Of a stretch of 64,000 bases of DNA, positions 13,637 to 54,926 are shown in pieces. Positions within the stretch are counted from its first letter, which is position 1. Each line of letters opens with the position of its first letter. The notes under the pieces were generated by a model. The model did not search any database. It saw only the letters and a program-made list of their open reading frames with translations, and was not told where the DNA came from. The stretch is taken from assembly GCA_041659505.1 (NCBI GenBank), contig JBAZYF010000001.1, forward strand, positions 412,933-476,932, read 5' to 3'. The translations under genes were made by a program, and so were the position numbers. Origin of the DNA: Parcubacteria group bacterium (lineage in GTDB: Bacteria > Patescibacteriota > Minisyncoccia > Moranbacterales > UBA2206).

Positions 13637-13645
13637 ATTTTTAAA

Positions 13646-14176: not shown

Positions 14177-14204
14177 AGAAATAGGTTGAGTTTTAGCTTA
14201 AAAT

Positions 14205-18611: not shown

Positions 18612-18676
18612 TCTGATTTATATTGAATTTTTATGCCTAGGACGATTTTTCTTGAAAGATATCAGAAAATAGATAT

Positions 18677-19204: not shown

Positions 19205-19230
19205 ACTTGGTTATTAATTTAAAATTCTAC

Positions 19231-21072: not shown

Positions 21073-21145
21073 TGATGTTTGTGGTTTTATTTATATTCCC
21101 TTTATCTCTCGAGAGAGGTCCATTTGATGGCGAGGAAAATTTGGG

Positions 21146-21832: not shown

Positions 21833-21837
21833 GTTTT

Positions 21838-22263: not shown

Positions 22264-22336
22264 TGATTTCGCCGAATTTAGAATTTAATCGGTGCAATAA
22301 GTAAAAATAGGTGTTAATCAATGGCTCTAAATTTGC

Positions 22337-23464
22337 TCATTCCTCTTTCAAGTTTACCACATTTTTAGGTAATGGTCTTGGTGGAGTGGAGTAATTTATT
22401 TTAGTGACTTGGCTGGCTTGAGGAAAACTGAGTCGCGGTGGGTGCAAAGTTTCAATCGGTTTTTCTATGGGAAGAGTTTGCGGGGAAGAGAAATGGATAT
22501 TCCCCGTTTCTGGTTCAGTTTTTGCTGTTTCTTTTTTTGGCAGATCTCTTCTCCAGGCGGAAATCCTTTTTTCATCTGGCTGGAGCTTAGGCGCTGGCTG
22601 AGTGATCCTTTGTTTTGGATAATTATTTGTTTGATTTTGTCCTCTTCTGATTTCCGCCGGTTCAGTTGTGCTATTGATGTTTCCAAGATCGATAATTGGT
22701 TTTCGAGGAACTTCTTCTTTCTCTGGTATGTTGAAAATTATTTGCTTGGAATTACTATTTATGGAAAGTGGAGTTTTATCTTCAAAGGATTTTATGAGCG
22801 CTGACAGCCTTTCTCGGTCTTGAAAGGATAACGTTTGGGTGTTGTCACTTTTAAAAAGATAATTTCCCCGGATAATTGGGTCATGATTGCTGATGCCTAT
22901 TGTGAAAGTGTAGTCCGAGAGCCAGTTATCGATAGATGGTCGGACTGGTTCGGGGTAAGTTCTGATTTTAATATAGTTGGCGGTGATTAATTGTTCCCCT
23001 AGTAGGGGGTATTTTTTTAGTGCATTTTCGATCGGTAGGCTTTCTATTTGGGCTGCATAGGCTTTTTCTTGCGAGCTGTCGTTGATTATTCTTTGGATTA
23101 CTAGATCGGAAATCTTTTGCGCCGTAGCGATATTAATGCCTATCTCCTTAGATAAATTGGCGGGAAAGTCAGAGAGTTTGAGTTCTTGAAAATAATAACT
23201 GCGAATCGCACGAGAAATATCAGCCATTTGTAATGGTTCGAGGTGGAAACTTTTGCCAATATTTTGGATTTTTTGAGCTGTTAAGTCAGTAACAAGTTTG
23301 TCCTTTACTGGCTCTGGCAGGATGAGGAATTTTTCTTGTCTCTTTCTGATTTGCTCTGAATTTTCATCATCAGGATTTTTGGTGACAGAAACAGAATAAG
23401 GACGGGTGCATAGCACCAGCTTCGCATCCTCATTTAACTTAGAAAAAGGAAATTCTTTTGACAT
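22337..23464 (-). CDS. Hypothetical cytoplasmic protein with a Pro-rich C-terminus
   Basis: 375-aa ORF in the cluster. No recognisable domain. Confidence 0.45.
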   Translation of the reverse strand: MSKEFPFSKLNEDAKLVLCTRPYSVSVTKNPDDENSEQIRKRQEKFLILPEPVKDKLVTDLTAQKIQNIGKSFHLEPLQMADISRAIRSYYFQELKLSDFPANLSKEIGINIATAQKISDLVIQRIINDSSQEKAYAAQIESLPIENALKKYPLLGEQLITANYIKIRTYPEPVRPSIDNWLSDYTFTIGISNHDPIIRGNYLFKSDNTQTLSFQDRERLSALIKSFEDKTPLSINSNSKQIIFNIPEKEEVPRKPIIDLGNINSTTEPAEIRRGQNQTNNYPKQRITQPAPKLQPDEKRISAWRRDLPKKETAKTEPETGNIHFSSPQTLPIEKPIETLHPPRLSFPQASQVTKINYSTPPRPLPKNVVNLKEE

Positions 23465-23481
23465 GAGATTGGTTTTTTATT

Positions 23482-25428
23482 TTAGACAATTCCGATGCTG
23501 CTTAGCGCTGAAGAGTTGTTTCCAGAGAGTCTTTTGCGAACTTCTGCTTTTGCCTCAGTTTTTAGATTTGCCCATGCGACTTGTGCTGCTAGTATAGCCC
23601 GGTCCCTAGTCGGTCCTGCTGGTTGGCTTATTGTTGCAGTCCAATCTTGATCATTCCACTGTTCAGCGGAAAGCGCACCCATTTGCTGATTTGCAATATG
23701 TTGTTGAATGTCGGCAGTTGCGGCTGCTGCGGTTACAGTTGGTGGCAAGCCTGCCGCACTAATTCTTGCATCTAGATCTGCTCGAGCCGTAACTTGGCTT
23801 GCAGCACTGAAACTGTCAACATTTTCTCGTTTTGCCTGTTCGGTCGCATCATTTGATTTATTGATAGCAACCAGGTCGTTTCTATTTTGCTTTACTTTGG
23901 CGTTTACAGCGCCTCTTAATGCGGCATTGGAATTAGTCCTAATAAAGGCATCATAAGTTGTCTGATCCATTTTTTTATCTTCCGCTAATCTTAGTGCAGC
24001 TCCGGCGTCTCCAGCGGCAGCTAGAGTTTTAAGTTCAGGATCGGTCGTGAGATTTTTCTTGTGTTCGTCAGCCTTTCTTCGCATTTCCTTTTCTAGTGAT
24101 CCCTTGACGGCAAACATGCCCTTGCCAGCATACCTAGCTTCTCTTTCTGCTTGTCTGTCGGATCCAAAATATCCAGTTTTTTTCCAATTGGCCCATTTCT
24201 GTTGTACTCCGCCAGGAATGCCGGTTTTCTTAGCTGCCCACCAGGCAGTCTTATGCGGCGCGCTAGCTAATTGTTTCATTTTCTTTTGACCATATCCAAC
24301 TACTGCTCCTGCGCCTGCGATGCCAGATTTTTGGGCTATGATAATGCCATACCAAAGGATAATGATCGGCAATGCGAAAAAAGAAGCTGCGGAAACCAGT
24401 GTTGTTGTGTCCATCGTTGATCCGCTAGTGTTTGTTTTAGCGAGCGCTTGTATACTAGTTTGGCTTGCGCTGATTGCCGTGAATAGTTTGCTGGCAACAA
24501 ATAGAAAAAAAATTATAATCGGACCAGAAAAACAATATTTCATAAAATCTGTCCACCATTCACTGGCAGAACTGGCCAATTTTGTTCCGGGGGCGATTTG
24601 CCCGACAAAAGCGATTGGAGAAAAGATAATATATATAGTGAGCGCTATTGTCCGTATGAGCAGAAGAACGGCGATTATGAGCAGTGTGATGGCTAGGATA
24701 AAAGTGAAAATAATAGCAGAAATCAAAAAAACAAGGTCAATACTTTGGCTTTTCAGAATATTTTGAATCCCAGTTCCTTCAATGAGGGTCATAAAAGAAT
24801 TGGTTCCGCCAAGCGCGTTCAGGAGACCAAACATAAGCATATTGGAAGCGTCGATAATGAAGCGAGAGATGGGGAAACTGAAATTGACCAAAAGCGCCAT
24901 AATGATCAAGTTGAGTAAGATATTTTTATAGTTAAAATTTGTACTCGCCTGAAAGATGGTAGCGAAAGCGGAGAAGAGCAGTACCATGATAAAGGCGATG
25001 TTAAAAACATCGCGGACAGTGCGCCAAGTATCATAAACCACTTGGTTGCTCATGATCGCCTTCATGTTGTTTGCATCAACGATGTATCCAAAAATAGTTT
25101 GGGCTACGCTGAGTATTACGGCGACAAAGCTTAATATTCCCTTAAGCAGCCATGCTATTCCCCGTTGAAACCAAGTTGCGCTATCTACTTTTGGTATAGG
25201 CATTTTTGACGAATCTATTGATGCACCCTCAGCCCCATAATTATTGGAATACCCTGCAGAAGACTCTCCATTGAGATTGCTTAAGACATTGGAGTACCAA
25301 TGATCTTCAGCTGAAACTGGTCTAGCTGAATAAACAAGTGGTAAAAAAAATGCAACACAAAAAACTGCTAATAAAATTTTCAGTTTGTTTTTTTGAAAAA
25401 AAGTAAGCACGAGTGTATGTTTTTTCAT
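23482..25428 (-). CDS. VirB6/TrbL-like polytopic membrane protein with a long A/K/Q-rich C-terminal tail
   Basis: 648 aa. Signal/anchor, ~60-aa extracytoplasmic segment, a block of 5-7 TM helices, then a ~300-aa hydrophilic tail, as in Gram-positive VirB6 homologs (PrgH/TcpH-like). Confidence 0.5.
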   Translation of the reverse strand: MKKHTLVLTFFQKNKLKILLAVFCVAFFLPLVYSARPVSAEDHWYSNVLSNLNGESSAGYSNNYGAEGASIDSSKMPIPKVDSATWFQRGIAWLLKGILSFVAVILSVAQTIFGYIVDANNMKAIMSNQVVYDTWRTVRDVFNIAFIMVLLFSAFATIFQASTNFNYKNILLNLIIMALLVNFSFPISRFIIDASNMLMFGLLNALGGTNSFMTLIEGTGIQNILKSQSIDLVFLISAIIFTFILAITLLIIAVLLLIRTIALTIYIIFSPIAFVGQIAPGTKLASSASEWWTDFMKYCFSGPIIIFFLFVASKLFTAISASQTSIQALAKTNTSGSTMDTTTLVSAASFFALPIIILWYGIIIAQKSGIAGAGAVVGYGQKKMKQLASAPHKTAWWAAKKTGIPGGVQQKWANWKKTGYFGSDRQAEREARYAGKGMFAVKGSLEKEMRRKADEHKKNLTTDPELKTLAAAGDAGAALRLAEDKKMDQTTYDAFIRTNSNAALRGAVNAKVKQNRNDLVAINKSNDATEQAKRENVDSFSAASQVTARADLDARISAAGLPPTVTAAAATADIQQHIANQQMGALSAEQWNDQDWTATISQPAGPTRDRAILAAQVAWANLKTEAKAEVRKRLSGNNSSALSSIGIV

Positions 25429-25431
25429 TTT

Positions 25432-26466
25432 TTATTTATATAGTGCTCCTGGGCCGTAGGCATCAACAGTTTTATTTATTTCACTGCTCGCCTTATTATT
25501 TACTGTGGTTATTTGCTGGTTAACTTTTTGCTTAACGCCGGAAACAGCTTTGTTTACTGCGCTAGAAATAACTTTAGACACGGCCGCTGCTGCCAATTCT
25601 CCGATACTATTCGCACTTGTAACCGCCAAATTAGGAAGATTGTCCGCGTTAGCTTGCATTTCCTTGTAGAGTATGCCTGGCTTGTCTATGATTCCACTTG
25701 TCGTATCACTGATAAATCCCTGATTTGCGATACTTTGCGCGCTTGCAATAGCTTTTTCACTTTCCAATGCCGCGGCGTATTGCTGAGCAATGGCGGACTC
25801 GGCATCCCAAATCGTATTTCCACCATTACCATCACCTAAAAGGTAGAGGTTTAGATTAGAAAGTGATGAACCCTGAAACATCTGAGCCGGATCTCCCGGA
25901 TAGCTCAATTGCCATTCCTTTATATCAACAATAGTATCTTGAGCCATTGTTTGGATGCTTTGGGCAAAGCTTGCACTGCTACTAGAGGAATCAGATGCTC
26001 CCAAAACAGCTTCTTTGCCGAAACCTTCCTCGGCAATCGTGCTGGCACCTAAAACACTACCAACTGTTTGATAGCTGGAACTGCCTCGTCCGGCGAGTGC
26101 GCGACTAATGTAGTCATTAGCATAGGTTTGCGCGTTACGAGCGGGTGCGGCAATTAAGTAGTCTTGCCAATTAGTTATGAATTTTGGGCCACTGCCTCCT
26201 CCAGAAATAAAACTATCCATTTGCTGGGAAAGCATCTTGACAGCGGCTTGTTTCATGGAACCCATAATCATACCTTTGATGGTGTAGGAAATTTCTTCTT
26301 GTGCTTGCTTGAAAATGGCGCCCGGAATAGCATCGAAAGGGGCAATCCAAGCATAAGTCTTGACCGGACTCAACAAGAGATAGGAAAGAATCATGAAAAA
26401 AAACATGCCCAGATTGATTTTAGTGGGAAGGTGGCCTTCTTTTTGTTTTTTAAAATTATTTTGCAT
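25432..26466 (-). CDS. Hypothetical secreted/anchored protein
   Basis: 344 aa. N-terminal hydrophobic helix, S/A/Q-rich extracytoplasmic body. Could be a VirB8/VirB5-like component, but sequence does not support a call. Confidence 0.45.
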   Translation of the reverse strand: MQNNFKKQKEGHLPTKINLGMFFFMILSYLLLSPVKTYAWIAPFDAIPGAIFKQAQEEISYTIKGMIMGSMKQAAVKMLSQQMDSFISGGGSGPKFITNWQDYLIAAPARNAQTYANDYISRALAGRGSSSYQTVGSVLGASTIAEEGFGKEAVLGASDSSSSSASFAQSIQTMAQDTIVDIKEWQLSYPGDPAQMFQGSSLSNLNLYLLGDGNGGNTIWDAESAIAQQYAAALESEKAIASAQSIANQGFISDTTSGIIDKPGILYKEMQANADNLPNLAVTSANSIGELAAAAVSKVISSAVNKAVSGVKQKVNQQITTVNNKASSEINKTVDAYGPGALYK

Positions 26467-26525
26467 AAAGTGAATAAATATTTTTCCAATAGTGGGAAAA
26501 TATTGACGGGTAGTGCGCGGTTATT

Positions 26526-27635
26526 TTAGGGAGTTGTTGTGCCAGCTGTTGCGTCAGTATTGATATTAAACAGCGATTCTATGCCACTGAGATCTTTCGG
26601 TGCACTGATGCCATAACTTTCCAATTTCTTTTGGACGGTCTCGTCATAAGTCAGGCCATACTGAGAAAATTTACTTTGGGCTTCGGAGGTAAAATCAGAA
26701 AAGACGGTCATAAATCCTTCTATCTTGGAAAGATTGGCGATATTACCCATCGGGTCATTGTCTTTGGCTTGAAAAAGCTCTCCTAGGCTTTCTGAATAAA
26801 TTGCAAAACGCAAAGCTTTAATATGGATGTCGACCAGATCTTCCGGTACTTCGATGGCATTCAATTGCTCAACTATTTTTTTCTCACTAGTGATGAGATC
26901 TTGCAATCCGGAAGAATTCTGATTGGTGATAGCGGTAGTTATAGTGGAAAGGACGCTGGACATGACGCTAGGCGCATCAGTGAGCGAGGTGATTGGCTTA
27001 GGGGAATTACTAGAAAAGATGTATGTGATAGCAACGATATAGTTCAAAAGGTCATCTTTTTTCTTGGCGGTAGCCTCGGCTGTGCTTAAATTACTATAAC
27101 TTTGCGTTTTTATTTTTATATCATCTCTTGTGATGACAGGCAGATCATCCTCGGAAACCGTGCTAGGCGTCATTGTTTCATCGATCAGTGTTTGCAAATC
27201 GTCTAGGGAAATTTGCGTATTAGTGGAAGAAGATTGCTGTGCCAGCGTGCTGGCTTTCTGGGCGATTTCGCTTGTTAAATTATCTTCCGTAGTTTCACCA
27301 AGGACTGAGCTTGTGGAATCGGCAGAAGAAGCCGGATTTGTGGCGGTGACCGCAGTTCCAGCTGTTGATAATTTATCGCCAGGCGCTTTTTTCAAAGGGT
27401 CGTAGCCACTGCGTACTTCTGCTCCGTCAGAATAGCCATCATTATCCGTGTCGGAATTATTCGGATCAGTGGTATAGACTTTTTCTTCTTCATCGGAAAG
27501 TCCATCTTGGTCGCCATCGAGAAAGATACTTTTTGTTTCACTGGAAGTAATTTCGGCGCGTACGTAAAAAGCAAAACTCGAAACGATCAAGCTCGCAAGA
27601 ATGAAAAAAGACAGACTGACATTTTTTATTTTCAT
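26526..27635 (-). CDS. Secreted protein with Asp-rich calcium-binding (thrombospondin type 3-like) repeats
   Basis: Signal peptide MKIKNVSLSFFILASLIVSSFAFYVRA. Repeats DGDQDGLSDEEE..TDPNNSDTDNDGYSDGAE and later DNDGYSDG..DPNNSDTDNDGYSDG. Confidence 0.5.
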   Translation of the reverse strand: MKIKNVSLSFFILASLIVSSFAFYVRAEITSSETKSIFLDGDQDGLSDEEEKVYTTDPNNSDTDNDGYSDGAEVRSGYDPLKKAPGDKLSTAGTAVTATNPASSADSTSSVLGETTEDNLTSEIAQKASTLAQQSSSTNTQISLDDLQTLIDETMTPSTVSEDDLPVITRDDIKIKTQSYSNLSTAEATAKKKDDLLNYIVAITYIFSSNSPKPITSLTDAPSVMSSVLSTITTAITNQNSSGLQDLITSEKKIVEQLNAIEVPEDLVDIHIKALRFAIYSESLGELFQAKDNDPMGNIANLSKIEGFMTVFSDFTSEAQSKFSQYGLTYDETVQKKLESYGISAPKDLSGIESLFNINTDATAGTTTP

Positions 27636-36668: not shown

Positions 36669-38777
36669 TTATTCCGCTTGATTTGCCAGTCTTGCTGAAA
36701 GATTAATCCGGCCTTGTGAGTCGATTTCTTTGACCTTGACTTTCACAATATCTCCGACGCTCAGAACATCTTCCACTTTCTCAATCCGTCTCTCAGCAAT
36801 TTCAGAAATATGAATTAGTCCTTCTTGTCCTGGGAGGATTTCCGCAAAGGCGCCAAAGGCCATGATGCGGGTCACTTTGGCATTAAAGATTTCTCCTGCT
36901 TTGACTTCGTGGGTGAGATTGTCAATCCATTCCTTGGCTTTTCCGGCAGAAACTTGGTCAGGCGAAGTGATGAAAATCATACCGCTGTCTTCAATGTCGA
37001 TTTGCACGCCAGTCTGATCAATGATTTCATTGATGATCTTGCCACCAGTTCCAATGACATTTCTGATTTTCTCTGGATTGATCTGCATTGTGATGATTCT
37101 TGGGGCATATTGGGACATCTCGGTGCGTGGTGCTGGCAGAACATCGGTAATTTTTTTCAAAATCTCCAGACGATTTTGGTGAGATTGGGTCAGAACCGCA
37201 GCGAGCATTTCCAGTGTGACTCCGTCAACTTTCACATCCATCTGCATCGCTGTGATGCCTTTTTCCGTTCCAGCTACCTTGAAGTCCATATCACCGTAGT
37301 GATCTTCCAAGCCTTGAATGTCAGTAAGAATCTTGAATTTATTATTTTCTCCGACAATAATTCCCATAGCAATTCCGGAAACTGGGCGCTTGATCGGCAC
37401 GCCAGCATCCATCAGCGATAGTGTCGAACCGCAAGTGGAAGCCATGGAAGATGATCCATTGGAGGAAAGAATTTCAGAAACTAAAAGAATGGTATATGGA
37501 AATTCCTCTTTGGATGGTAAAACTGGAACGAGCGCTTTTTCGGCCAGCGCGCCATGTCCCACTTCTCGTCTTCCCGGTCCTCGCATTGGACGGACTTCTC
37601 CGACTGAATATGGCGGAAAATTGTAGTGATGGATGTAGCGTTTTTTCATGTCTACCTCCATCGTATCGATAATCTGCTGGTCACCAGGCGAACCGAGTGT
37701 CGTGACTGTGAGGGCTTGGGTTTCTCCGCGGGTGAATAGTCCGGTTCCATGAGTCCGTGGCAAGAGGCCTGTTCGACATTCAATATGGCGGATTTCATCT
37801 AGTTTTCGTGAATCCGGGCGCAATTCTTTTTCGAGAATATTTTTATGTACGATTTCATCGGATACCTCCTCAAAGACAATTTCAGCTACTTCTTTCAATT
37901 TCGCTTCTTCTTCTGGAAAAGTTGCTTTGATGTAGTCCTTGACTTTGTCATTGATCGCACTCATCTTTTCCTCGATTACTTTCTTGTCTTTGTCATACAA
38001 TGCTTCAGCTAGATTTTCAGTCATTAAAATTTCTTTGACTTTAGCTTCAAATTCGGGTGTTCCAGCCACAAGCGTTGGCACATTTTTTTCTTTCCCTATT
38101 TCCTTTTGAATTTCTAAAATGAAACCGACAATCTTTTTGATTGCTTCTTGTCCAAAAGTAAAGGCTTTGAGCATTTCTTCTTCAGAAATTTCCATTGCGC
38201 CACTTTCTATCATATTGACTTTGTCAGCACTGCCGGAAATCAAAAGATCAAGTTCGCCTTCAGCTAATTCTCCATTGCTGACTGGATTAAGCACAAACTC
38301 CCCACCGGCTTTTCCGACGCGTACAGCAGCGACTGGACCATTCCAAGGAATATTTGATATGGCGAGAGCAGTCGAAGCAGCGATGATAGCAATCGTATCA
38401 GGGTCGTTTTCTCCATCATAAGAAAGTACGGTCACAATTACTTGCACGTCATTTCGCATCCGGTGGTTGAAAAGTGGACGGATTGTTCGGTCGACGGCGC
38501 GTCCGGAAAGGACGGCGTCATCGGATGGGCGGCCTTCACGTTTGATAAAACGCGAGCCTTTGATTTTCCCGGCGGCATAATAGCGTTCTTCGAAATCTAC
38601 CATCAAAGGGAAATATCCACAGACGCGGGATGCGCCTTTACTCATGACAGCCGTCGCAAGTACGACTGTGTCGCCATAACGCACTGTGACGGCGCCATTA
38701 GCTTGTCCGGCTAAAAGGCCGTTTTCGATTTCCAAGATACGTCCCCCAATTTGGAGAGACCATTTCTTTTGATCCAT
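36669..38777 (-). CDS. pnp: Polyribonucleotide nucleotidyltransferase (PNPase)
   Basis: 702 aa. Two RNase PH domains plus KH and S1 (...GEIFNAKVTRIMAFGAFAEILPGQEGLIHISEI...). Synteny with rpsO. Confidence 0.95.
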   Translation of the reverse strand: MDQKKWSLQIGGRILEIENGLLAGQANGAVTVRYGDTVVLATAVMSKGASRVCGYFPLMVDFEERYYAAGKIKGSRFIKREGRPSDDAVLSGRAVDRTIRPLFNHRMRNDVQVIVTVLSYDGENDPDTIAIIAASTALAISNIPWNGPVAAVRVGKAGGEFVLNPVSNGELAEGELDLLISGSADKVNMIESGAMEISEEEMLKAFTFGQEAIKKIVGFILEIQKEIGKEKNVPTLVAGTPEFEAKVKEILMTENLAEALYDKDKKVIEEKMSAINDKVKDYIKATFPEEEAKLKEVAEIVFEEVSDEIVHKNILEKELRPDSRKLDEIRHIECRTGLLPRTHGTGLFTRGETQALTVTTLGSPGDQQIIDTMEVDMKKRYIHHYNFPPYSVGEVRPMRGPGRREVGHGALAEKALVPVLPSKEEFPYTILLVSEILSSNGSSSMASTCGSTLSLMDAGVPIKRPVSGIAMGIIVGENNKFKILTDIQGLEDHYGDMDFKVAGTEKGITAMQMDVKVDGVTLEMLAAVLTQSHQNRLEILKKITDVLPAPRTEMSQYAPRIITMQINPEKIRNVIGTGGKIINEIIDQTGVQIDIEDSGMIFITSPDQVSAGKAKEWIDNLTHEVKAGEIFNAKVTRIMAFGAFAEILPGQEGLIHISEIAERRIEKVEDVLSVGDIVKVKVKEIDSQGRINLSARLANQAE

Positions 38778-44217: not shown

Positions 44218-45153
44218 ATGGATATCCACGAACTTGAAGTCCAATTTTTGGAACATTTGGAAATTGAGAGGGGTCGCTCGCAAAAAACGATCGAAAACTA
44301 TGACCACTATCTCAGGCGCTTTTTGGATTGGGCTGAGATCTCTCGACCCGAGCAAGTCACAGCCGAAATGGTGCGAAATTTTCGGATTTATCTTAATCGC
44401 TACGAAGATGCGAAGGGGAAAAAGCTGAAAAAAATTACGCAAGGCTATTATGTGATTGCCATCCGCAATTTTCTCAAGTTTCTCTCCAAAAGAGATATCA
44501 AGTCGCTTCAGGCGGAAAAAATTGAAACGGGAAAAGCCCCGACGCGGGAAGTAGATTTTTTGGAAATGGAGGAAGTGGAGCGAATTTTAGCGCAGGCGAA
44601 TGGGCAAGATCTCAAGAATCTGCGTGATCGGGCGATTTTGGAACTGCTTTTTTCGGCCGGTCTTCGGGTGTCCGAGTTGACGGATATAAATAGAGAAAAA
44701 ATTGACCTGAAAGGGCGAGAGTTGAGCGTGCGAGGCAAAGGCGACAAAGTACGGGTAGTTTTTATTTCCGACTCCGCCGCTCAAGCGATAAGTAAATACC
44801 TAGACAAGCGCACGGATGTTGATCCAGCACTGTTTGTCCGGGATTTTCAGGGACTTATGAAATTTGAAGCTAAAAATAGCAAAAAAACTGGGGATAACTT
44901 GCGACTAACTCCCCGATCAGTCCAAAGAATCGTCAAATACTACGCAACTAAGGCCGGAATCGTGAAAGATGTCCATCCGCACACTCTCCGCCATTCCTTC
45001 GCCACAGATCTCCTCATCAACGGCGCCGATATCCGCTCAGTCCAAGCCATGTTAGGACATTCTTCTATCACAACAACCCAGGTTTATACCCATGTTACTA
45101 ACAAGCAACTTAAAGAAGTACACCAGGCGTTTCATTCCAGGAGAAAAAGATAG
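44218..45153 (+). CDS. Tyrosine site-specific recombinase, XerC/XerD-like
   Basis: N-terminal SAM-like core-binding domain (IERGRSQKTIENYDHYLRRF). Catalytic R...K...HTLRHSFATDLL...GHSSITTTQVYTHV with Tyr. 311 aa. Confidence 0.85.
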   Translation: MDIHELEVQFLEHLEIERGRSQKTIENYDHYLRRFLDWAEISRPEQVTAEMVRNFRIYLNRYEDAKGKKLKKITQGYYVIAIRNFLKFLSKRDIKSLQAEKIETGKAPTREVDFLEMEEVERILAQANGQDLKNLRDRAILELLFSAGLRVSELTDINREKIDLKGRELSVRGKGDKVRVVFISDSAAQAISKYLDKRTDVDPALFVRDFQGLMKFEAKNSKKTGDNLRLTPRSVQRIVKYYATKAGIVKDVHPHTLRHSFATDLLINGADIRSVQAMLGHSSITTTQVYTHVTNKQLKEVHQAFHSRRKR

Positions 45154-45243: not shown

Positions 45244-45315
45244 GGACGACCAAGAAATTGTTGTGGGACCAGCTGGATTCGAACCAGCGACCAAGAGATT
45301 ATGAGTCCCGTGCTC
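45244..45315 (-). tRNA. tRNA-Met (anticodon CAT); could alternatively be a lysidine-modified tRNA-Ile2
   Basis: Cloverleaf read by eye: acceptor GGGACCA/TGGTCCC, D arm GCTC-AGTGGTA-GAGC, anticodon loop CUCAUAA, T arm GCTGG-TTCGAAT-CCAGC. CCA is not encoded. The 13-nt 3' end (TGTGGGACCAGC) is duplicated 8 nt downstream at 45221-45233. Confidence 0.78.
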
Positions 45316-45352
45316 TACCACTGAGCTATGGTCCCGAATTTACGAACTAAAT

Positions 45353-46150
45353 CTAGTCTAGCCTTTGTTCGTGATTATGTCTAGGTATATCGCTCATAAA
45401 ACCCTGTTTTAACTTTATTTCTGGCAAATGATCCCACAGCGCTTCAAAAATAAGTTTCAAGGTGTTGTATATTTCCGAACTCTCAATGATGACCGCTAGG
45501 GTTTCCTTAGCGGAGATGAGGGATATTTTTGAGTGGCCGTAAATATCTATTTCTATGGAAAAAGGATATTTACTTTTATCGATTAATTTTGTGGAGCGCA
45601 ATTCTTTTTGGTCGTTTTCATGGAGCATTCCATGGGTGTAGTCTGTTTTTGGTAGGATTGCTCGCACTCGAATGCCCTTTTTTATTCTCTTTTTAATAAA
45701 CGTGCCCATCCATTCTTGCCCGACAATCTTTACGATATCTTCCGATCCAAAAGCCGAGAATCCGCCAGAATATCTCAAAGTATCCAAGTAGACTTCTTTT
45801 ATACCTTCGACTCCCTCATAGAATCGGATTTTTGGTTTGACGCCGGAAATGTTGTAGAGAGAGCGAAATTGCGGTAAGGCTTCTAGAAAGATCGCTTCTT
45901 TCCGTTCGAAATCCTTTTTGAGCTTTTCTGGATCTTCAGCGATGAAAAATCTTCTTTTTCCTTTTGTTGACTCAAAAATCAGCCCCTTGTTTTTGAGATC
46001 CAGCAGGATATCATAGCAAGTGGTCCTTTTAATGAGGGCTTTTTTGGCGATTTGAATGGTCGTTCCGGAGCCTAACTCTAATGATGCGAGATAGACACCA
46101 GCTTCATGGCTAGACAGTCCGATTTGTTCCAAAATAGCTTTTAGTTCCAT
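45353..46150 (-). CDS. TrmB-family transcriptional regulator (N-terminal wHTH), paralog 1
   Basis: MELKAILEQIGLSSHEAGVYLASLELGSGTTIQIAKKALIKRTTCYDILLDLKNKGLIFE... aligns with the other two TrmB-like ORFs in the window. Confidence 0.7.
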   Translation of the reverse strand: MELKAILEQIGLSSHEAGVYLASLELGSGTTIQIAKKALIKRTTCYDILLDLKNKGLIFESTKGKRRFFIAEDPEKLKKDFERKEAIFLEALPQFRSLYNISGVKPKIRFYEGVEGIKEVYLDTLRYSGGFSAFGSEDIVKIVGQEWMGTFIKKRIKKGIRVRAILPKTDYTHGMLHENDQKELRSTKLIDKSKYPFSIEIDIYGHSKISLISAKETLAVIIESSEIYNTLKLIFEALWDHLPEIKLKQGFMSDIPRHNHEQRLD

Positions 46151-46387
46151 ATATTTAGTATAATGACGACAAAACCGTCATCTATTGCATTATAACAAAA
46201 CTAGTAATAATAGTCAAATAATGCTTATTATAAGGAAAATAAAGCAAAAGAGCTTTTTCAACTATCGACAATGATTGACGCTATCTTTGACAATATGACG
46301 TTTTAGTAGTATAATTGGCTGTTAAGATGAATAGCCACGAAATGATGGGGCGAGTCTTAACAAAAACTTACCATTAACCAAAAAATT

Positions 46388-46588
46388 ATGAAAATGATCT
46401 TGAATAATGGAACAGTTATCGGTAATGCACCGATAATGTCAGAAAAAACCAGGGAATATCTCAATCAATTCTGGCACTTTCCTTCTAATGAAGAAGCGGA
46501 GAAGGAAAAAGAGAAATATTATACCTTTGATTACAAAAGAGAGATTCACAGAAGAACCGATCAAACAGAAAACGAAATTAAGCCCTAA
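46388..46588 (+). CDS. Conserved 66-aa protein, paralog of 57877-58077, transcribed divergently from a TrmB gene
   Basis: MKMILNNGTVIGNAPIMSEKTREYLNQFWHFPSNEEAEKEKEKYYTFDYKREIHRRTDQTENEIKP. Conservation of the paralog pair argues that it is a real gene. Confidence 0.55.
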   Translation: MKMILNNGTVIGNAPIMSEKTREYLNQFWHFPSNEEAEKEKEKYYTFDYKREIHRRTDQTENEIKP

Positions 46589-46723
46589 ATTCTAGCCGAG
46601 GACAGAAAAAGCTTCTGTCTTCCTTAGAGTTTATCTAAATTCGCAGATGGCTCAAAAGCTCATTAAAAAATCAATAATAATGCCGCTTGTATCGGCGGGG
46701 TAGAAATTGAGCAAGGAGAGAAA

Positions 46724-47131
46724 ATGAAAATAATTCTGCTAATTGAAGACAAGCCGGAAGAAATGGCTAAAGCTAAATTGATTTTGTCAGAAAAAGGTTG
46801 TCGGTTCGTTTCGGCCGACAATCTAGACGATGCCATGCGGGTTTGGTCAAAACTTGGAAACAAGATTTACGGAATCTTGACCGATCTCCATTTCCCAGAA
46901 AGAATTGGAGAAAAAGAAACAGCTTGTGGATTTGCGGTGGTCACTCGCGCAGTGCGGATGGGAATTCCAGTTTCCATTTGTACTGATGTTAATCACCATT
47001 TCTGCGGATATCTTAAATATTTTATGGAAGATATTGAAATGCTGACCCACCAAAATGTTCCATATACCATGGACAATAAAAATTGGCAACAAGCGGTTCA
47101 GAAACTAATCGAACAATTCAAGGAGGATTGA
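46724..47131 (+). CDS. Stand-alone receiver (REC)-like domain protein, partly degenerate
   Basis: MKIILLIEDKPEE...ILTDLHFPE... acidic pocket plus Asp. No output domain. Confidence 0.45.
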   Translation: MKIILLIEDKPEEMAKAKLILSEKGCRFVSADNLDDAMRVWSKLGNKIYGILTDLHFPERIGEKETACGFAVVTRAVRMGIPVSICTDVNHHFCGYLKYFMEDIEMLTHQNVPYTMDNKNWQQAVQKLIEQFKED

Positions 47132-47132
47132 T

Positions 47133-47444
47133 ATGCAAAAATTGATGATTATTGGTGGAGATATTTTGGGCGAAACACTTAAGGTGGTCTTGGCTGACTA
47201 CTTTGATGAAGTGATTGTCGTGGACCACAAACAAGCATTGGAAACTTTTTTCCTTGAGGATCCTACTCATGTGCTTATTTCTGACACGCTCGGTTCTCCT
47301 GGAGATGCGCAGGTAATGAAAGATATCCGTGGCGCGAACGTATCTAGCCGGATTGTTTGCTATGGTTTCGGTGGAAATGTGGATATTAAGCTTCCAATTA
47401 AAAAAGAGGAACTCATCAGTGTTCTAATGGGCGAAAAGGAGTAA
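47133..47444 (+). CDS. Stand-alone pseudo-receiver domain protein
   Basis: REC-like ...VLISDTLGSPGDAQV...LPIKKEELISVL, but the N-terminal acidic pair is replaced (IIGGDIL). Confidence 0.4.
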   Translation: MQKLMIIGGDILGETLKVVLADYFDEVIVVDHKQALETFFLEDPTHVLISDTLGSPGDAQVMKDIRGANVSSRIVCYGFGGNVDIKLPIKKEELISVLMGEKE

Positions 47445-47446
47445 AA

Positions 47447-47797
47447 ATGAAAATTCTGTATATCGACGACGATGCTGAATTGCGTTATCATTTCAAATCC
47501 ATGCTGGAGGAGCATAGAGGCCACGCTGTCGAAGTGGCTTCTAGCGGGGACGAGGGCACTAACATGATTGCAGGCAGTGCTTTTGATTTAGTTATTACTG
47601 ACATGCAAATGCCTGGAATGTCCGGGTTGGATGTTATCCGTTTTGTTAAGGATAGATATCCAGAAATAAAATTAATTCTCAAATCCAAAGGTTTCTTTAG
47701 GAAAGTCGCGGAAAAAGAAGGCGTTCCTTTTTATGCTATGATGGAGGGCACTAAATATTTATTGGATATGGTTGAAAACATGTCCAAAGTTCTTTAA
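47447..47797 (+). CDS. CheY-like single-domain response regulator (receiver only)
   Basis: MKILYIDDDAEL...LVITDMQMPGMSGLDVIRFVKDRYPEIKLILKSKG: the canonical DD, phospho-acceptor Asp, Thr/Ser and Lys positions. Confidence 0.72.
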   Translation: MKILYIDDDAELRYHFKSMLEEHRGHAVEVASSGDEGTNMIAGSAFDLVITDMQMPGMSGLDVIRFVKDRYPEIKLILKSKGFFRKVAEKEGVPFYAMMEGTKYLLDMVENMSKVL

Positions 47798-47929
47798 ACC
47801 ACAAACCGACTTTGAGTCAAGTCGTAAAACATGGCTCTTTTTTTATTTTCAATAAAACAAAAAACAACTCATATTTTTGGGGAATATGAGCAAAATTTTG
47901 CTTTCAAGTGAAGTGAAAAAACTTTTTTG

Positions 47930-48005
47930 TGGGCGTGAGAGGACTCGAACCTCTGAAACCTCTACAATGTCAATGTAGCGCTCTAACCAACTGAGCTACA
48001 CGCCC
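47930..48005 (-). tRNA. tRNA-Val (anticodon GAC)
   Basis: Acceptor GGGCGTG/CACGCCC, D arm GCTC-AGTTGGTTA-GAGC, anticodon stem CTACA/TGTAG with loop TTGACAT, T arm AGAGG-TTCGAGT-CCTCT. The variable region looks 7 nt long. Confidence 0.72.
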
Positions 48006-49303: not shown

Positions 49304-51223
49304 CTAGATATTCTTAACTTCCACAGCTTCAATTTTTTCCTGCGTAGTTTCTGTGGCCATTTCAACTGGTTCAATGATAATAGCTTCGTCCTCGTTCTTT
49401 TTTGCTGGTGCAATTCCCATAATCGCATTGAACTCAGCTTGTTCAATTGTTTCTTTCTCAAGAAGAACGTTGGAAATTTTATCCAAAAGCTCTTTCTTTT
49501 CAATGAGGATTTTCTCCGCGACCTTGTAGGCATCGGCGATAAATTTGGTGACTTGGTTGTCAATTTCTCGGGCGGTTTCTTCAGAATAATTCTTTTCTTC
49601 GTGCATTTCCTTGCCTAAAAAGACCATTTCTTCCTTGTGGCCAAAAGTGCGCGGTCCCAGATCGCTCATTCCATAACGCGTGACCAAATTTCTCGCAATC
49701 GCGGTTGCTCGCTCCAAATCATTGGAAGCCCCGGTCGTAATGTCGCCAAAAGTCAATCTTTCACTGAGGTATCCACCCAAAAAGACGGAAAGCTCATCGA
49801 TGAAATAATTGCGGGATTGTAGAGTTTTGTCTTTGGTTGGTGCGTTTAGGGTATAGCCACCAGCATGACCGCGGGAAATGATGGAAATTTTTTGAACGGG
49901 ATCGGCGTGTTTCAGCGTGGCAGCAATCAGTGCGTGTCCCGCTTCGTGATAGGCGATGATTTTTTTTTCATCTTCATCAATGCGGCGACTCTTCCTTTCT
50001 GGCCCAAGGATGACTTTCTCGATCGATTCCGCAAGCTCGTTCATGCCGATAGTTTTCATGCCTCTTCTAGCAGCCAGAATTGCAGCTTCATTAAGTAGAT
50101 TAGCCAGGTCAGCTCCGGAAAATCCCGGTGTTCGTTGAGCAATAACGCGTAGATCAATATCTTTTACCAAAGGTTTATTTTTAGAATGAATCTTGAGAAT
50201 CGCTGTGCGTTCTTCAATGTCTGGCAAATCCATAACCACGCGACGATCAAAGCGTCCTGGCCGAAGGAGCGCCGGATCAAGCACGTCAGGGCGGTTAGTA
50301 GCGGCAATGACAATTACATTAGTATTAGTATCAAAACCATCCATCTCCACCAGAATTTGATTCAAAGTTTGTTCCCGTTCGTCATGTCCCCCGCCTAAGC
50401 CTGCTCCACGATGGCGTCCAACGGCATCAATTTCATCAATGAAAACAATAGCCGGTGAATTTTTCTTGGCTTGTTTGAATAGGTCACGCACACGAGATGC
50501 TCCCACTCCGACAAACATTTCTACGAATTCCGAACCGGAGATATTGAAAAATGGTACATTGGCTTCTCCAGCAACTGCTTTGGCAATCAAAGTTTTGCCT
50601 GTTCCAGGAGAACCGAGGAGAAGCACACCTTTAGGAATCTTAGCGCCAAGGCTCAAAAATTTCTTGGGAGTTTTCAAAAATTCTACAATTTCATAGAGTT
50701 CTTCCTTGGCTTCCTTGGCTCCGGCGACATCGGCGAAAATGACACGGTTTTTTTTGTCTTTCGGGTCCGATACGCGCGCCTTGGATGTTCCAAACGACAA
50801 TGCTTGATTATTCCCTCTTTGCGCTTGGCGGAGCATAAACCAAATGAAGCCGGCAATAAGTAGGAACGGCAAAAGAAAAGGCAAGATTGTTCCCAACCAA
50901 AGGCTGGCGGAACTTTCGCCTTTGACGACAATATTCACTGCATCAAGTTTTGCCGGGTCAACCCCATAATTTTTAAAAGTTTCCGTCAGCCCCGCTTCTT
51001 TTTCTTTGGTTGATTTCTCTGTCGTTCCGTCAGTCATGATGATGGCGAGGTCGCTGTCAGTCACATCGATCTCTTTGATTTTTTGATCATTGATTTGAGA
51101 GACGAGCGTGGAAAGTGAAATGTCCGTCGGTTTTTTCTCGGGGTTATTGAGTAAAATTAGGATACCGGAAATAAAGAGAAAGAAAAGTAGTGCGTAGCTA
51201 ATATTGCGTAGGAGATTTTTCAT
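49304..51223 (-). CDS. ftsH: ATP-dependent zinc metalloprotease FtsH
   Basis: N-terminal TMs, AAA Walker [24 protein letters not shown], and the Zn-binding HEAGHALIA. Confidence 0.95.
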
Positions 51224-51243: not shown

Positions 51244-52197
51244 TTAAATAAGTTCTAAGTTAATTTTATCACCTCTGCGGGTCATTTTCAATCCCCCACT
51301 GGAGACGATTTGGTTTTTGTTTTTTGTACTCCGGATGGCCTTCAAGATTTCTTCAATCTGTGAATAGTTCTCGTGAGCGTCGGCCGGTTTTTTTAGCGCT
51401 ATTGTTTTTAGTAGAATTCTCTTTTGAATCGCTTCTGGCATTGCTAGTATTTTTTTCACACTCAGCACTTTGTTTTCTTCCCACGCTTTTTCTGTCAGTT
51501 CTTCGATTACCGCATAATCCTCCGAAAAAGTCCGGGCACTTTTGGCGAGCAATTGTCGCAAATTAGGATTGTAATTTTTTTCCAGATAGGGAATTAATTT
51601 ATTCCTAATCTTATTTCTCAGATAAATTGATTCTCTGTTTGTCTTGTCGATGCGGTAACTTAATTTATTTTCTTTCAAATATGCAATAATTTCTTTGCGC
51701 GTCATCTCGAGCAGCGGTCGGATAATATTTCCGTTTTTCGCACTCATTGCTGAAAGTCCAGCGAGTCCTGTTCCGCGGATCAGTCGCATCAGCACCGTTT
51801 CCGCTTGATCATCAGCGTTGTGCGCGACCGCGATCAGATCAAATTTATTTTCTTTGCGCAATCTTTCAAAAAAAGTATACCGCACATCGCGCAAATATTC
51901 TTCTGATTGATTTTTCTCTTCAATCTTGGCGTCAAGAATATCCAGTGATAAGTTATATTTTTCGGCTAGCTTTTCTACAAACTCTTCATCCTGGTTACTA
52001 TCTTTCCCTCGCAGATGATAATTGACGTGAGCAATGGATAATTCTAAATTATATTTTTTTTGTAGTTTGGAAAATACATCAAGAAGCACTGTTGAGTCCG
52101 GTCCGCCGGAAACTCCCAAAACAATTTTAGCTTCTCTTTCTAAAAGAGAGTTTATAGAAATAAAGTTTTGGATTTTTTTGATCAGATTAGGCATCAT
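51244..52197 (-). CDS. tilS: tRNA(Ile)-lysidine synthetase
   Basis: PP-loop VLGVSGGPDSTVLLDVF. Conserved position upstream of ftsH. Confidence 0.88.
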   Translation of the reverse strand: MMPNLIKKIQNFISINSLLEREAKIVLGVSGGPDSTVLLDVFSKLQKKYNLELSIAHVNYHLRGKDSNQDEEFVEKLAEKYNLSLDILDAKIEEKNQSEEYLRDVRYTFFERLRKENKFDLIAVAHNADDQAETVLMRLIRGTGLAGLSAMSAKNGNIIRPLLEMTRKEIIAYLKENKLSYRIDKTNRESIYLRNKIRNKLIPYLEKNYNPNLRQLLAKSARTFSEDYAVIEELTEKAWEENKVLSVKKILAMPEAIQKRILLKTIALKKPADAHENYSQIEEILKAIRSTKNKNQIVSSGGLKMTRRGDKINLELI

Positions 52198-52227: not shown

Positions 52228-52809
52228 CTATGAGAGTTTGAATCCCTCCGTTTTTAAAATTTCTACAATTTCATTAACAGCCTCTTCTAGCATATCTTGT
52301 TTATTAGTGACTATAAAATCATAATAAGACATTTCATTTTTTATTTCAGTTGCAGCGTTGACTAGCCTATCAGCTAACTCTTCTTCGGTGATAGATGGCT
52401 CTCTATTAAGGATTCGCTTCCTTATATTTTCTATTAAATCGGGTTTAATAAAGATTGTTGTTGCGTTATAATTTTCTTTGAAATATTTCGTTCCTACAAT
52501 GTCTGGATTGGCGATTATATTAAAGCCACCGACTATTTTTTTATCCAAGTCTGGCTTGTAGCTTCCATAATATACTCCTCTATTTTTTACGTAAGTATGC
52601 TCGATAATGTTTTTATTAATGATTTCATCTTTAAACTTTTCTTCGGACAAAAAATAATAGTCAATGGCTTCTTGCTCCCCAATTCTCATTGATCGCGTAG
52701 TCGCGGCAACCAGACGCTTAAAAATAGGAAAACGCTTAACGATTTCATTTGTTAGGGTGCTTTCTCCGCATCCAGTTGGGCCGGAGATAATTAGTACTCG
52801 TTTATGCAT
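52228..52809 (-). CDS. gmk: Guanylate kinase
   Basis: P-loop LIISGPTGCGESTL and the Gmk signature ATTRSMRIGEQEAIDYYFLSEEKF...YYGSY. Confidence 0.75.
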   Translation of the reverse strand: MHKRVLIISGPTGCGESTLTNEIVKRFPIFKRLVAATTRSMRIGEQEAIDYYFLSEEKFKDEIINKNIIEHTYVKNRGVYYGSYKPDLDKKIVGGFNIIANPDIVGTKYFKENYNATTIFIKPDLIENIRKRILNREPSITEEELADRLVNAATEIKNEMSYYDFIVTNKQDMLEEAVNEIVEILKTEGFKLS

Positions 52810-52811
52810 AT

Positions 52812-54206
52812 TTATTCTTTCTCTTTTTTCTCCTTCTTAACCTTCTTCACTTTTTTCTCAGCTGGTTTCTCTGCGTCTTCTTTTGCTTCTTCAGTTTTTT
52901 CGATTTTTTCTTTCTTGGATTTCTTCTCTACCTTTTCTGTATCAGCATCAACTTCTTCCGCCTTTTCTTTTTTAACTTTCTTCTCCTTTTCCGGCTTATC
53001 AATAAGTGTCAGTCCCATACGGTGTTCGCGTGGTTCGATAGAAAGAATTTTCCAGCTGTAATCCTCCCCAGTCTTGATCAGATCGCCAAGACTTTTCCCT
53101 GGATGTGTATCGAGCATTTCGCTGATGTGTGCCAGGCCGTGGATATCATTGTCGAGATAGACAAAAGCGCCAAAGTGATTGATTTTGTGAACTTTTCCTG
53201 TCACGATGTCCCCCACCTTATATTTATTCGTCGCTTCGCTCCATGGGTCAGCCTGCAGTGCGCGAATGGAAAGCGAAATTTTATCATTATCAATACCGAT
53301 AATTTTAGCCTCAACCTTATCTCCTACTTTTACGATTGTGCGTGGGTTTTCGATCAATTGCCAAGCCAGTTCTGAAATATGTACCAAGCCTTCGACTTTT
53401 TCTCTTTCATTGATCTCGCCGTCATCGTTTCTTGGAGAGAATTTTACGAACGCACCAAAATCCACCACTCCGGAAATTTCACCGGAAATCACATCACCAA
53501 CTTTGAAATTGGAAATAGTTTCCTTATCGCGGTCGCTTTGCGCCGCTTTTTCACTGGCAATCAATTTTTCGGCTTCACGATCAATGTCCAAAACACAAAC
53601 TTCCAATTCTTTTCCGACCAGTTTTTTGAGCAAGTTTAGAATCTTATTTTTATCTCCATCTTCAACGCGAGGATAGTTTTTGCTAGAAAGTTGTGACACA
53701 GGCAAAAATCCGGCAATCCCATTGATTTCGATAAGCAGTCCGCCTTTATTAGCGCTGATAACTTTCGTCTTGACCTTATCCCCTGCGTCTCGTTTCTTTT
53801 CGATATCCTCCCATGCTTTTTCATAGGAAGCTTCGCGGATGGAAAGTTCGATGTAACCCTCTTCATTTTCCAAATCAGTCACAGTAGCAGAAACCTTATC
53901 GCCCAATTTTAGTTTTCCAGAGCCCATGCCATCCTTAATTTCTTTGCCCAAAACCAATCCTGTTCCGAATGGTCCGAGATCCAGATAGATTTCGCTGGAA
54001 GAAACTTCTAAAACTGTTCCAATAACAGTGTTGCCCACTATTGGAAACTCAATCGGGTTGTCCAAAAGTAATTGTTCCATAAAAGAAACTTTCTTTTCTT
54101 CCGGCGCAGTTTTTTCGTCTGCCGGCGCAGTCGTGACAGGAGCACTAATTTTTTCATCACTCAATTTATCCACTTCATCAGCAAGACTAGCCAATATATC
54201 GTTCAT
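52812..54206 (-). CDS. rpsA: Ribosomal protein S1-like (multiple S1 domains) with a Lys/Glu-rich C-terminal tail
   Basis: Repeated S1-domain G-D-x-V-x-G-x-V motifs (VGDVISGEISGVVDFGAFV, VGDIVTGKVHKINHFGAFV). C-terminal KKEKKEKE low complexity. Confidence 0.8.
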   Translation of the reverse strand: MNDILASLADEVDKLSDEKISAPVTTAPADEKTAPEEKKVSFMEQLLLDNPIEFPIVGNTVIGTVLEVSSSEIYLDLGPFGTGLVLGKEIKDGMGSGKLKLGDKVSATVTDLENEEGYIELSIREASYEKAWEDIEKKRDAGDKVKTKVISANKGGLLIEINGIAGFLPVSQLSSKNYPRVEDGDKNKILNLLKKLVGKELEVCVLDIDREAEKLIASEKAAQSDRDKETISNFKVGDVISGEISGVVDFGAFVKFSPRNDDGEINEREKVEGLVHISELAWQLIENPRTIVKVGDKVEAKIIGIDNDKISLSIRALQADPWSEATNKYKVGDIVTGKVHKINHFGAFVYLDNDIHGLAHISEMLDTHPGKSLGDLIKTGEDYSWKILSIEPREHRMGLTLIDKPEKEKKVKKEKAEEVDADTEKVEKKSKKEKIEKTEEAKEDAEKPAEKKVKKVKKEKKEKE

Positions 54207-54488: not shown

Positions 54489-54926
54489 TCAACAGAAATG
54501 ATCCGTCTGGTCAGGCCTCGGAATGATTTTCTCCCGTGGCCTTGATTTGAGAATTTCCTGGATCTTTGTCCAGAGGCTTGTGCGGGTTGTAAAGTGTTGG
54601 AATCCTAAATCCGCGTATATAGACATATGATCAAATGTGCTATGGTTCCAGACGATAATCGTTTGGTTTTTCATTGTTTCGGGAACCGCTTTTGCTTTTG
54701 ATATCCCAGCGCCCAGATTGTTACCAATAACAACAAGATTAAAATCTTGATCCTTAAGGATCCACTCGATGTTGTGGCACAGATCGCCACTAGCCTGACG
54801 GTATACATTATCCGATCCCAACTGAAACTCCGTCGTCGCATTGATGCTTGTAGCAGTTGGGTTGAACTCAACAAGAAACTGCAAGTCTTCATCAAGGTAT
54901 AATACGCGTAGTTGTTCCATAAGCAC
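54489..54926 (-). CDS. Hypothetical protein with a degenerate receiver-like fold
   Basis: The N-terminus LRVLYLDEDLQFL and ...DFNLVVIGNNLGAG...K... resemble a pseudo-REC domain. Weak. Confidence 0.35.
   Translation of the reverse strand: MLMEQLRVLYLDEDLQFLVEFNPTATSINATTEFQLGSDNVYRQASGDLCHNIEWILKDQDFNLVVIGNNLGAGISKAKAVPETMKNQTIIVWNHSTFDHMSIYADLGFQHFTTRTSLWTKIQEILKSRPREKIIPRPDQTDHFC

Follow-up and report, generated by a model that had tools for sequence, protein, structure and literature searches.

The 64,000-nucleotide (nt) stretch of a Parcubacteria group bacterium genome analysed here (contig JBAZYF010000001.1, positions 412,933 to 476,932; hereafter the window) carries three short open reading frames (ORFs), ORF1, ORF2 and ORF3, which lie head to tail and encode relatives of the receiver domain of response regulators. 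With dnaA and dnaN at its start, the window is chromosomal; its G+C content is 40%. Stop and start codons are 1 nt apart at the ORF1/ORF2 junction and 2 nt apart at the ORF2/ORF3 junction, and each ATG is preceded, 5-8 nt upstream, by a Shine-Dalgarno sequence of the form AAGGAG(G). An earlier interpretation made from the letters and their translations (the sequence-only reading) had given the same coordinates, lengths (Table 1) and 1-2 nt spacing, and the motifs that it quoted (IEDK, LTDLHFP, IIGGD and ITDMQMPGMSG) are all present in the translations. It was also right that none of the three proteins has an output domain: each is a single domain. The public record has gene calls for all three ORFs and describes the products of ORF1 and ORF2 as hypothetical proteins, that of ORF3 as 'response regulator'.

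Relatives of ORF1 and ORF2 were found only as small families in metagenomes and metagenome-assembled genomes of the Candidate Phyla Radiation (CPR); related loci and relatives are referred to below by L numbers and, in one case, as P0013. Using the orthologues in L001 and L004, we estimated the ratio of nonsynonymous to synonymous substitution rates (dN/dS), which is 0.04-0.06 for ORF1, the lowest of the three, and 0.16 for ORF2. For ORF3 and its orthologue the proportions of nonsynonymous and synonymous differences (pN and pS) are 0.28 and 0.81, the latter saturated, making it the least constrained. With pN well under pS in each case, the three are genuine genes, and by this measure all are under purifying selection. 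Start sites and Shine-Dalgarno sequences are likewise conserved in relatives. Thus ORF1 is the most conserved of the three and ORF3, the sole one recognised by current annotation, the least.

The sequence-only reading had assigned the receiver fold to all three proteins. In single-sequence searches against the Pfam Response_reg model (PF00072, gathering threshold 30.2 bits) only ORF3 passes, with 57.6 bits over profile positions 1-77 of 111; ORF1 reaches 18.7 bits (E 0.002) and ORF2 has no Pfam match at all. Weak matches to this model are given by 13 of 18 ORF1 relatives, and weak receiver matches in Pfam by 3 of 25 ORF2 relatives. Single-sequence searches of ORF1 and ORF2 against the sequences of PDB entries were uninformative, and ORF3 had 140 matches there. 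Sub-threshold scores for ORF1 and ORF2 had been named in advance as grounds for abandoning the receiver assignment; they were indeed obtained with single sequences, but profile-to-profile comparisons and predicted folds overturn them, and the homology holds for all three proteins even if Pfam alone recognises one.

For ORF3, hhalign comparison with an alignment containing CheY, Spo0F and PhoB gave 99.6% probability (E 6e-24), with beta5 and the K109 position gapped. The ORF1 family alignment matched receiver alignments with 96% probability (E 3e-9 and 8e-9), and its profile found 30 PDB sequences below E 1e-3, receivers in every case, over the N-terminal 65-87 positions. The AlphaFold2 (AF2) model of ORF1, built with eight homologues, has a mean predicted local distance difference test score (pLDDT) of 83.4 and the (beta-alpha)5 order; the top 50 Foldseek matches to it in PDB are all receiver domains (best E 3.5e-6, template modelling scores of 0.6-0.7), and neither the PDB sequence search nor Foldseek related ORF1 to any enzyme family. 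With ORF2, a profile of five sequences was too shallow (8% probability), and the match to receivers became significant only after additional representatives from an exhaustive search had joined the alignment; its structural matches include the CikA and FrzS pseudo-receivers. The (beta-alpha)5 fold was thus found, as was homology to receivers of known structure, and ORF1, ORF2 and ORF3 are all receiver-fold homologues, the first two by virtue of family profiles and structure models. Comparison of the ORF1 and ORF2 families with each other by hhalign finds nothing, and we rejected the idea that they are recent mutual duplicates.

A pseudo-receiver is defined as a receiver that lacks any one of the conserved acidic pair (DD), the acceptor Asp (D), the Thr (T) and the Lys (K) (Bourret et al. 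2025, PMC12632262). Across the 18 sequences of the ORF1 family D9, D54, P58 (the D+4 position), G69, H92 and K119 are invariant, E8 is nearly so, and position 87 is Thr or Ser in all; Cys occupies position 86 in 16 and position 68 in 12. According to hhalign, E8-D9, D54, P58 and T87 fall on CheY D12-D13, D57, P61 and T87, and K119, placed by the AF2 model in the beta5-alpha5 loop, is likely the equivalent of the canonical Lys. H92, C86 and C68 all lie on loops that form the receiver active site. The family is further marked by a lengthened beta3-alpha3 loop and by the motifs T-D-x-x-H-H and K-[DN]-W. ORF1 therefore does not look like a clear pseudo-receiver, as it has conserved candidates for all five catalytic positions, and among the three it is the best candidate for a working phospho-acceptor.

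ORF2, by these residues, is a clear pseudo-receiver with DD, T and K missing. In place of the acidic pair, whose absence had been noticed before, it has G8 and G9, a position that varies across the family. The acceptor position is D51 in the window and D, E, G or A in relatives, with no Pro at D+4; no Thr or Ser is conserved at the position equivalent to the one after beta4; about 10-15 residues of beta4/alpha4 are deleted; and the family motif [QKR]-[LMFIV]-P-[FL] before alpha5 has a hydrophobic residue ahead of a conserved Pro where the Lys would be. ORF3 retains D7 and D8, D52, P56 and S80. In the MAFFT alignment its Y96 corresponds to CheY Y106, the aromatic residue at K-3, and M99 to K109, with Ala there in the L001 orthologue; the hhalign alternative leaves the whole beta5-Lys segment gapped. 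By the strict definition ORF3 would hence be a pseudo-receiver too, with K missing by alignment. The sequence-only reading had credited ORF3 alone with the complete pocket including the Lys and had treated the most constrained protein, ORF1, as an intermediate or pseudo-receiver. A pseudo-receiver is indeed mixed with receivers here, but which proteins are pseudo is largely the inverse of what had been proposed.

Comparison of related loci indicates that the conserved unit is the ORF1-ORF2 pair and not the triplet. An ORF2-like gene lies directly 3' of the ORF1-like gene in every locus that has an intact ORF1-like gene and downstream sequence (L001-L009, L011/L012, L014, L016/L017, L020, L021, L022, L023, L024 and L025), the two genes overlapping by 4 nt at one extreme and standing 13 nt apart at the other. 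Species-representative genomes that carry the pair are labelled Candidatus Moraniibacteriota, Candidatus Saccharibacteria and Patescibacteria group. The ORF2 family comprises free-standing proteins of about 100 residues in about 20 clusters at 50% identity. ORF3 is present only in the window, P0013 and L001-L003/L019 and is absent from L004-L007/L018 and all distant loci, which undoes the triplet as the functional unit; it is a recent, optional and dispensable addition in the window and its close relatives. In L004-L007/L018, ORF2 is followed by a convergent gene for a RarA/MgsA-type ATPase (PF12002 MgsA_C and AAA families).

Other lineages have different additional receiver-like genes around the pair, among them paralogues of ORF1 at two loci. 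L025 has downstream extras at 3237-4012, namely a 111-residue ORF and a 147-residue ORF1 paralogue, and L023 has a 175-residue paralogue at 8690-9217, upstream of the pair; both paralogues have the T-D-x-x-H-H and K-D-W motifs and long insertions before alpha5. At L026 (5773-6036) the ORF1-like gene is cut to 87 residues and followed by stop codons, there is no ORF2-like gene, and the orthologous divergent gene for a TrmB-family regulator (see below) is intact, so that the locus resembles a decaying copy of the module.

Genes for phosphotransfer partners were sought in the window and around the related loci. A Pfam scan of 52 window ORFs gave no match to HisKA, HATPase_c or Hpt; further ORFs, for example 36669-38777, 49304-51223, 51244-52197, 52228-52809 and 52812-54206, were judged to be housekeeping genes by eye only (FtsH-, PNPase-, TilS-, Gmk- and S1-like genes are among them). 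The called or scanned neighbours at related loci had no match to these three families either, and no kinase lies within about 7-10 kb at any of about 10 independent loci. The sequence-only reading was thus correct that no histidine kinase is adjacent. A classical two-component arrangement, with a HisKA/HATPase_c gene beside the regulator, is found neither among the scanned window ORFs nor among the neighbours at related loci, and the same is true of an Hpt partner for a multistep phosphorelay, Spo0B-like partners included. The conserved 66-residue ORF upstream of ORF1 was considered as an Hpt-like partner and rejected: it has no family match at E up to 10, is too short and occurs only in close relatives. 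Nor is ORF3 a chemotaxis CheY, as its 34.8 bits with the NCBIfam model PRK10610 (CheY) fall far short of the cut-off, 189, and the scanned window ORFs include no recognised che or fli gene; the IMG label 'CheY-like chemotaxis protein' is a generic name. PADLOC models found no match in ORF1, ORF2, the 66-residue ORF or the TrmB-family gene and only weak N-terminal ones in ORF3 (E at least 2e-4), leaving an anti-phage defence reading without support.

Table 1. Coordinates of the receiver genes, their surroundings and other features of the window
Feature	Position	Strand	Description
ORF1	46724-47131	+	135 aa; divergent stand-alone receiver; core of the pair
ORF2	47133-47444	+	103 aa; stand-alone pseudo-receiver from a small family without annotation; invariably next to ORF1-like genes
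ORF3	47447-47797	+	116 aa; receiver, typical over its N-terminal two thirds, with degenerate C-terminus; lineage-specific accessory
TrmB-family helix-turn-helix (HTH) regulator	45353-46150	-	265 aa; Pfam TrmB 42.3 bits (cut-off 25.6); divergent from the operon
Promoter-like site, TrmB-family gene	46189-46217	-	TTGACT-17-TATAAT with TG; 11/12 consensus matches; conserved in L001 and L004
Promoter-like site, operon	46287-46315	+	perfect TTGACA-17-TATAAT, 12/12; hexamers invariant in L001 and L004
66-aa ORF	46388-46588	+	first gene past the promoter; length and frame the same in L001 and L004-L007
Spacer between 66-aa ORF and ORF1	46589-46723	+	135 nt; two conserved hairpins; 89% identity to L001 and L006
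Hairpin past the ORF3 stop	47807-47824	+	T-run about 14 nt later; reported by the scan on the - strand
tRNA-Val	47929-48005	-	bounds the cluster downstream
XerC/D-type tyrosine recombinase gene	44218-45153		Phage_integrase and SAM-like N-terminal domain
tRNA-Met	45263-45335		between the recombinase and TrmB-family genes, immediately upstream of the latter
T4SS-pilin-like gene (type IV secretion system)	13178-13636	-	within the 13178-27635 cluster
TraG/VirB4-type P-loop ATPase	19231-21072	-	within the 13178-27635 cluster
Bacterial TSP3 repeat protein	26526-27635	-	within the 13178-27635 cluster

A TrmB-family HTH gene, itself under strong constraint (dN/dS 0.05 against its orthologues), is transcribed away from the operon and is a candidate regulator or partner of it. 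Such a gene lies divergently and within 1 kb of the ORF1-like gene in three independent lineages, namely the group of the window (L001/L004), L021 and L026, and within 2-3.7 kb in L020, L023 and L024. The window holds three genes of this family (45353-46150, 58292-59029 and 59949-60641), and because TrmB-like genes are so frequent the link to the receiver pair is only suggestive; their recurrence near the pair also suggests that TrmB is a dominant regulator family in these small genomes.

The promoter-like site ahead of the 66-residue ORF is the probable start of the operon. That ORF has a dN/dS of 0.16-0.19, no Pfam, NCBIfam or PADLOC match and a distribution restricted to close relatives, unrelated small ORFs taking its place at distant loci. 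In the spacer that follows, the second hairpin (CCGCT-TGTATC-GGCGG) is situated about 25 nt 5' of the ORF1 start, and its pairing is kept in L001 through a compensatory change of C:G to T:A; it could be an element of intercistronic processing, stability or attenuation. The spacer hairpins have no match in Rfam, and a structured RNA of a known Rfam family was rejected for the operon and its surroundings, where tRNA is the sole passing match. The divergent intergenic region (46151-46387) is 85% identical to those of L001 and L004. Just upstream of the TrmB-family start it contains an invariant inverted repeat, TGACGAC-N5-CCGTCA, and a further TGACG stands beside the -35 element of the operon promoter; these repeats are candidate operators for the TrmB-like regulator. 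The hairpin past the ORF3 stop is a possible, if weak, candidate for the operon terminator. Beyond the block from the TrmB-family gene to ORF3, the flanks differ from those of L001 and L004. A horizontally acquired island, as the integrase-like gene and the flanking tRNAs might indicate, was rejected, the G+C content of the cluster (0.34-0.42) being in line with the 0.40 of the window and dnaA/dnaN being in the same window.

Elsewhere in the window, an ORF at 54489-54926 had been put forward as a fourth, weakly receiver-like protein. It is called as a singleton hypothetical protein of 143 residues from an internal ATG and gave no receiver signal in any sequence test run: there is no Pfam or NCBIfam match, hhalign against receivers yields 1.9% probability over 17 columns only, and purpose-built hidden Markov models of receivers, ORF1 and ORF2 find nothing. 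We consequently do not count it as a predicted receiver. The palindrome GTTCCACGTGGAAC, the core of the 22-nt AATTGTTCCACGTGGAACAATT, has nine exact copies where none is expected (55947, 55989, 56178, 56219, 56525, 56595, 56780, 56821 and 57142), mostly paired at 41-42 nt, all inside one Wzy_C/O-antigen-ligase-like ORF (55445-57163, + strand) and nowhere else in the 64 kb. The ORF stays open through the copies in different frames, giving the peptides CSTWNN, IVPRGT and LFHVEQ, and the copies have the look of short palindromes inserted into a coding gene that tolerates them. A long run of genes at about 13178-27635, all on the - strand, encodes membrane or secreted proteins most of which defy annotation, one of them from a 953-residue ORF; with the pilin-like and ATPase genes of Table 1 the cluster resembles an apparatus of the type IV secretion or conjugation-like kind, here in a CPR genome.

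Gene structure, homology, residue conservation, synteny and the lack of a neighbouring kinase are observed, and from them we infer that ORF1 and ORF2 form a split receiver/pseudo-receiver heteromeric switch of Patescibacteria that is served by an unlinked or small-molecule phosphodonor, a reading on which our judgement is evenly poised. ORF1 carries what appear to be the residues for Mg2+-dependent Asp phosphorylation (E8-D9, D54, T87 and K119), along with H92 and C86 on the pocket side. The tight coupling of the two genes across deep divergence points to co-expression in a fixed ratio and, by extension, to a physical complex. Phosphorylation of ORF1, or a ligand, would alter its binding to ORF2, and the complex would act on its target through protein-protein contact, the target possibly being the TrmB-like regulator. 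The phosphodonor would not be encoded nearby and could be an orphan kinase elsewhere or a small molecule such as acetyl phosphate. ORF3, without the canonical Lys, would probably have a modulating role (competitor, connector or sink, for example), and the most likely part for the divergently encoded TrmB-like regulator is to control the operon or to be its target. Because no kinase is adjacent here or at any related locus, the case for a protein-interaction module is better than that for a kinase and regulator paired in textbook fashion. This much of the sequence-only reading is retained, namely a kinase-less operon of stand-alone receivers in which protein interaction is a reasonable role; its pseudo-receiver labels, its triplet and its fourth ORF are not.

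Several observations weigh against this split switch. The C-terminal half of ORF1 gives no HMMER alignment to receiver profiles, and it has an Asp, an unusual residue there, at T+1. K119 stands 2-5 residues to the C-terminal side of the position expected from the alignment and from the rule of an aromatic residue at K-3, and for this reason its equivalence to the canonical Lys is only likely. The ORF2 model is moderately confident, three of the five models being poor, and none of the 19 ORF2-family representatives is a fusion of ORF1 with ORF2. The association with TrmB-like genes is incomplete, with none in L014 or L025, and such genes are frequent. Finally, the search of the window covered 64 kb of a 656-kb contig. 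CPR genomes encode on average about 0.29 kinases per 100 genes, and kinases are present in 81% of them and absent from 19% (PMC10805038), which makes it quite possible that a dedicated kinase is encoded elsewhere on the chromosome.

Single-domain regulators with unlinked kinases are well known, MrrA being an example, and ORF1, ORF3 or both might be ordinary orphan regulators served by a distant histidine kinase or phosphorelay, with ORF2 a degenerate duplicate of little function. The window is only part of the chromosome, and most CPR genomes have at least one kinase (PMC10805038). Yet ORF2 is under purifying selection and is always retained beside ORF1-like genes, with tight junctions and across phylum-level distances, a pattern at odds with a decaying duplicate; nor does any of the roughly ten independent loci have a kinase close by. 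We consider this explanation rather unlikely. A phosphate sink for an unlinked kinase, in which ORF3 is the sole true phospho-acceptor and ORF1 and ORF2 are both pseudo-receivers, is very unlikely: ORF3 alone exceeds the Pfam threshold, carries DDD, D52 and S80 and has no kinase beside it, but it has no alignable Lys, is under the weakest constraint and does not occur at most ORF1-ORF2 loci, whereas in ORF1 each of the five catalytic positions is conserved in 18 of 18 relatives.

ORF1 could also have been re-purposed as a metal, redox or small-ligand site built on His and Cys, or as a small Asp-based hydrolase, with ORF2 as its adaptor. Redox-sensing receiver derivatives based on Cys exist, RitR among them (PMC5965902). 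The invariant H92 and the frequent C86 and C68 (16 and 12 of 18), all on active-site loops, would fit, as would the longer beta3-alpha3 loop and a C-terminal half that no longer matches receiver profiles; still, the full E-D/D/T/K set with Pro at D+4 is most simply read as continued phosphoryl chemistry, and the absence of any enzyme-family match by sequence or fold adds to our view that this is quite improbable. A bolder form of the split switch, unlikely as it stands, would make the pair a kinase-independent, Patescibacteria-specific device in which the Asp pocket and the His/Cys residues of ORF1 read a metabolic signal (acetyl phosphate, metal or redox) directly and relay it to transcription via ORF2 and the TrmB-like regulator. 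Such a device, if real, would be sensing reduced to a minimum, as befits very small genomes. To the notion that these are chance frames or decaying pseudogenes we give practically no credence. ORF1 and ORF2 are annotated only as hypothetical and the ORF1-like gene of L026 is truncated, but pN far below pS everywhere, conserved starts and Shine-Dalgarno sequences, confident receiver-like models and a pair kept across Patescibacteria classes mean that, judged by conservation, this notion is already refuted.

Recognisable signalling proteins are very scarce in CPR bacteria, or Patescibacteria, whose ways of sensing host and environment are poorly understood. Single-domain receivers, orphan receivers and pseudo-receivers are each common, and a previously unannotated, Patescibacteria-restricted ORF1-ORF2 pair is an incremental finding and not a surprising one. 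Standard domain annotation sees only ORF3 and misses a pair kept across Moranbacteria, Saccharibacteria and other Patescibacteria; new families could be defined for the relatives of ORF2 and for the ORF1 subfamily that bears the T-D-x-x-H-H and K-[DN]-W motifs.

With CheY, Spo0F, DivK, CpdR and MrrA the proteins described here have in common a stand-alone receiver fold, here of 116-135 residues, and presumably action through protein contacts. The best NCBIfam and PDB matches of ORF3 are the CpdR, TrrA, FleR and CheY receivers, with NCBIfam scores far below the equivalog cut-offs, and DivK and Spo0F are among the fold matches. Unlike these regulators, they have no CheA, Hpt or Spo0B-type partner nearby, and the longer beta3-alpha3 loop and the two motifs of ORF1 are atypical of CheY-type families. 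ORF2 resembles the pseudo-receivers of CikA (PsR), FrzS, PF06490 and PF21155 in having a receiver fold without the catalytic residues. It matches no dedicated pseudo-receiver family in Pfam (one family member reaches E 0.024 with VpsT-like_REC), and it differs from known pseudo-receivers in being free-standing, at about 100 residues, in its beta4/alpha4 deletion and in coming from a small family whose genes invariably neighbour an ORF1-like gene.

Pseudo-receivers that act together with a receiver-bearing partner are known from the BldM-WhiI heterodimer and from CmrR-CmrT, the CmrRST genes forming one operon (PMC12632262). Those proteins have DNA-binding output domains, and CmrRST has its own kinase, whereas here we find bare receivers with no linked kinase. 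By analogy, the closest described logic to the ORF1-ORF2 pair is the REC-REC' arrangement of PleD, in which phosphorylation of the receiver re-packs it against the adjacent pseudo-receiver (PMC12632262). In the present case the two halves are separate, translationally coupled genes, there is no GGDEF or other output domain, and the interaction between the halves is one that we infer. What turns bacterial pseudo-receivers on and off is a question acknowledged to be open (PMC12632262), and a naturally split pair of small soluble proteins would provide a simple system for the study of communication between receiver and pseudo-receiver.

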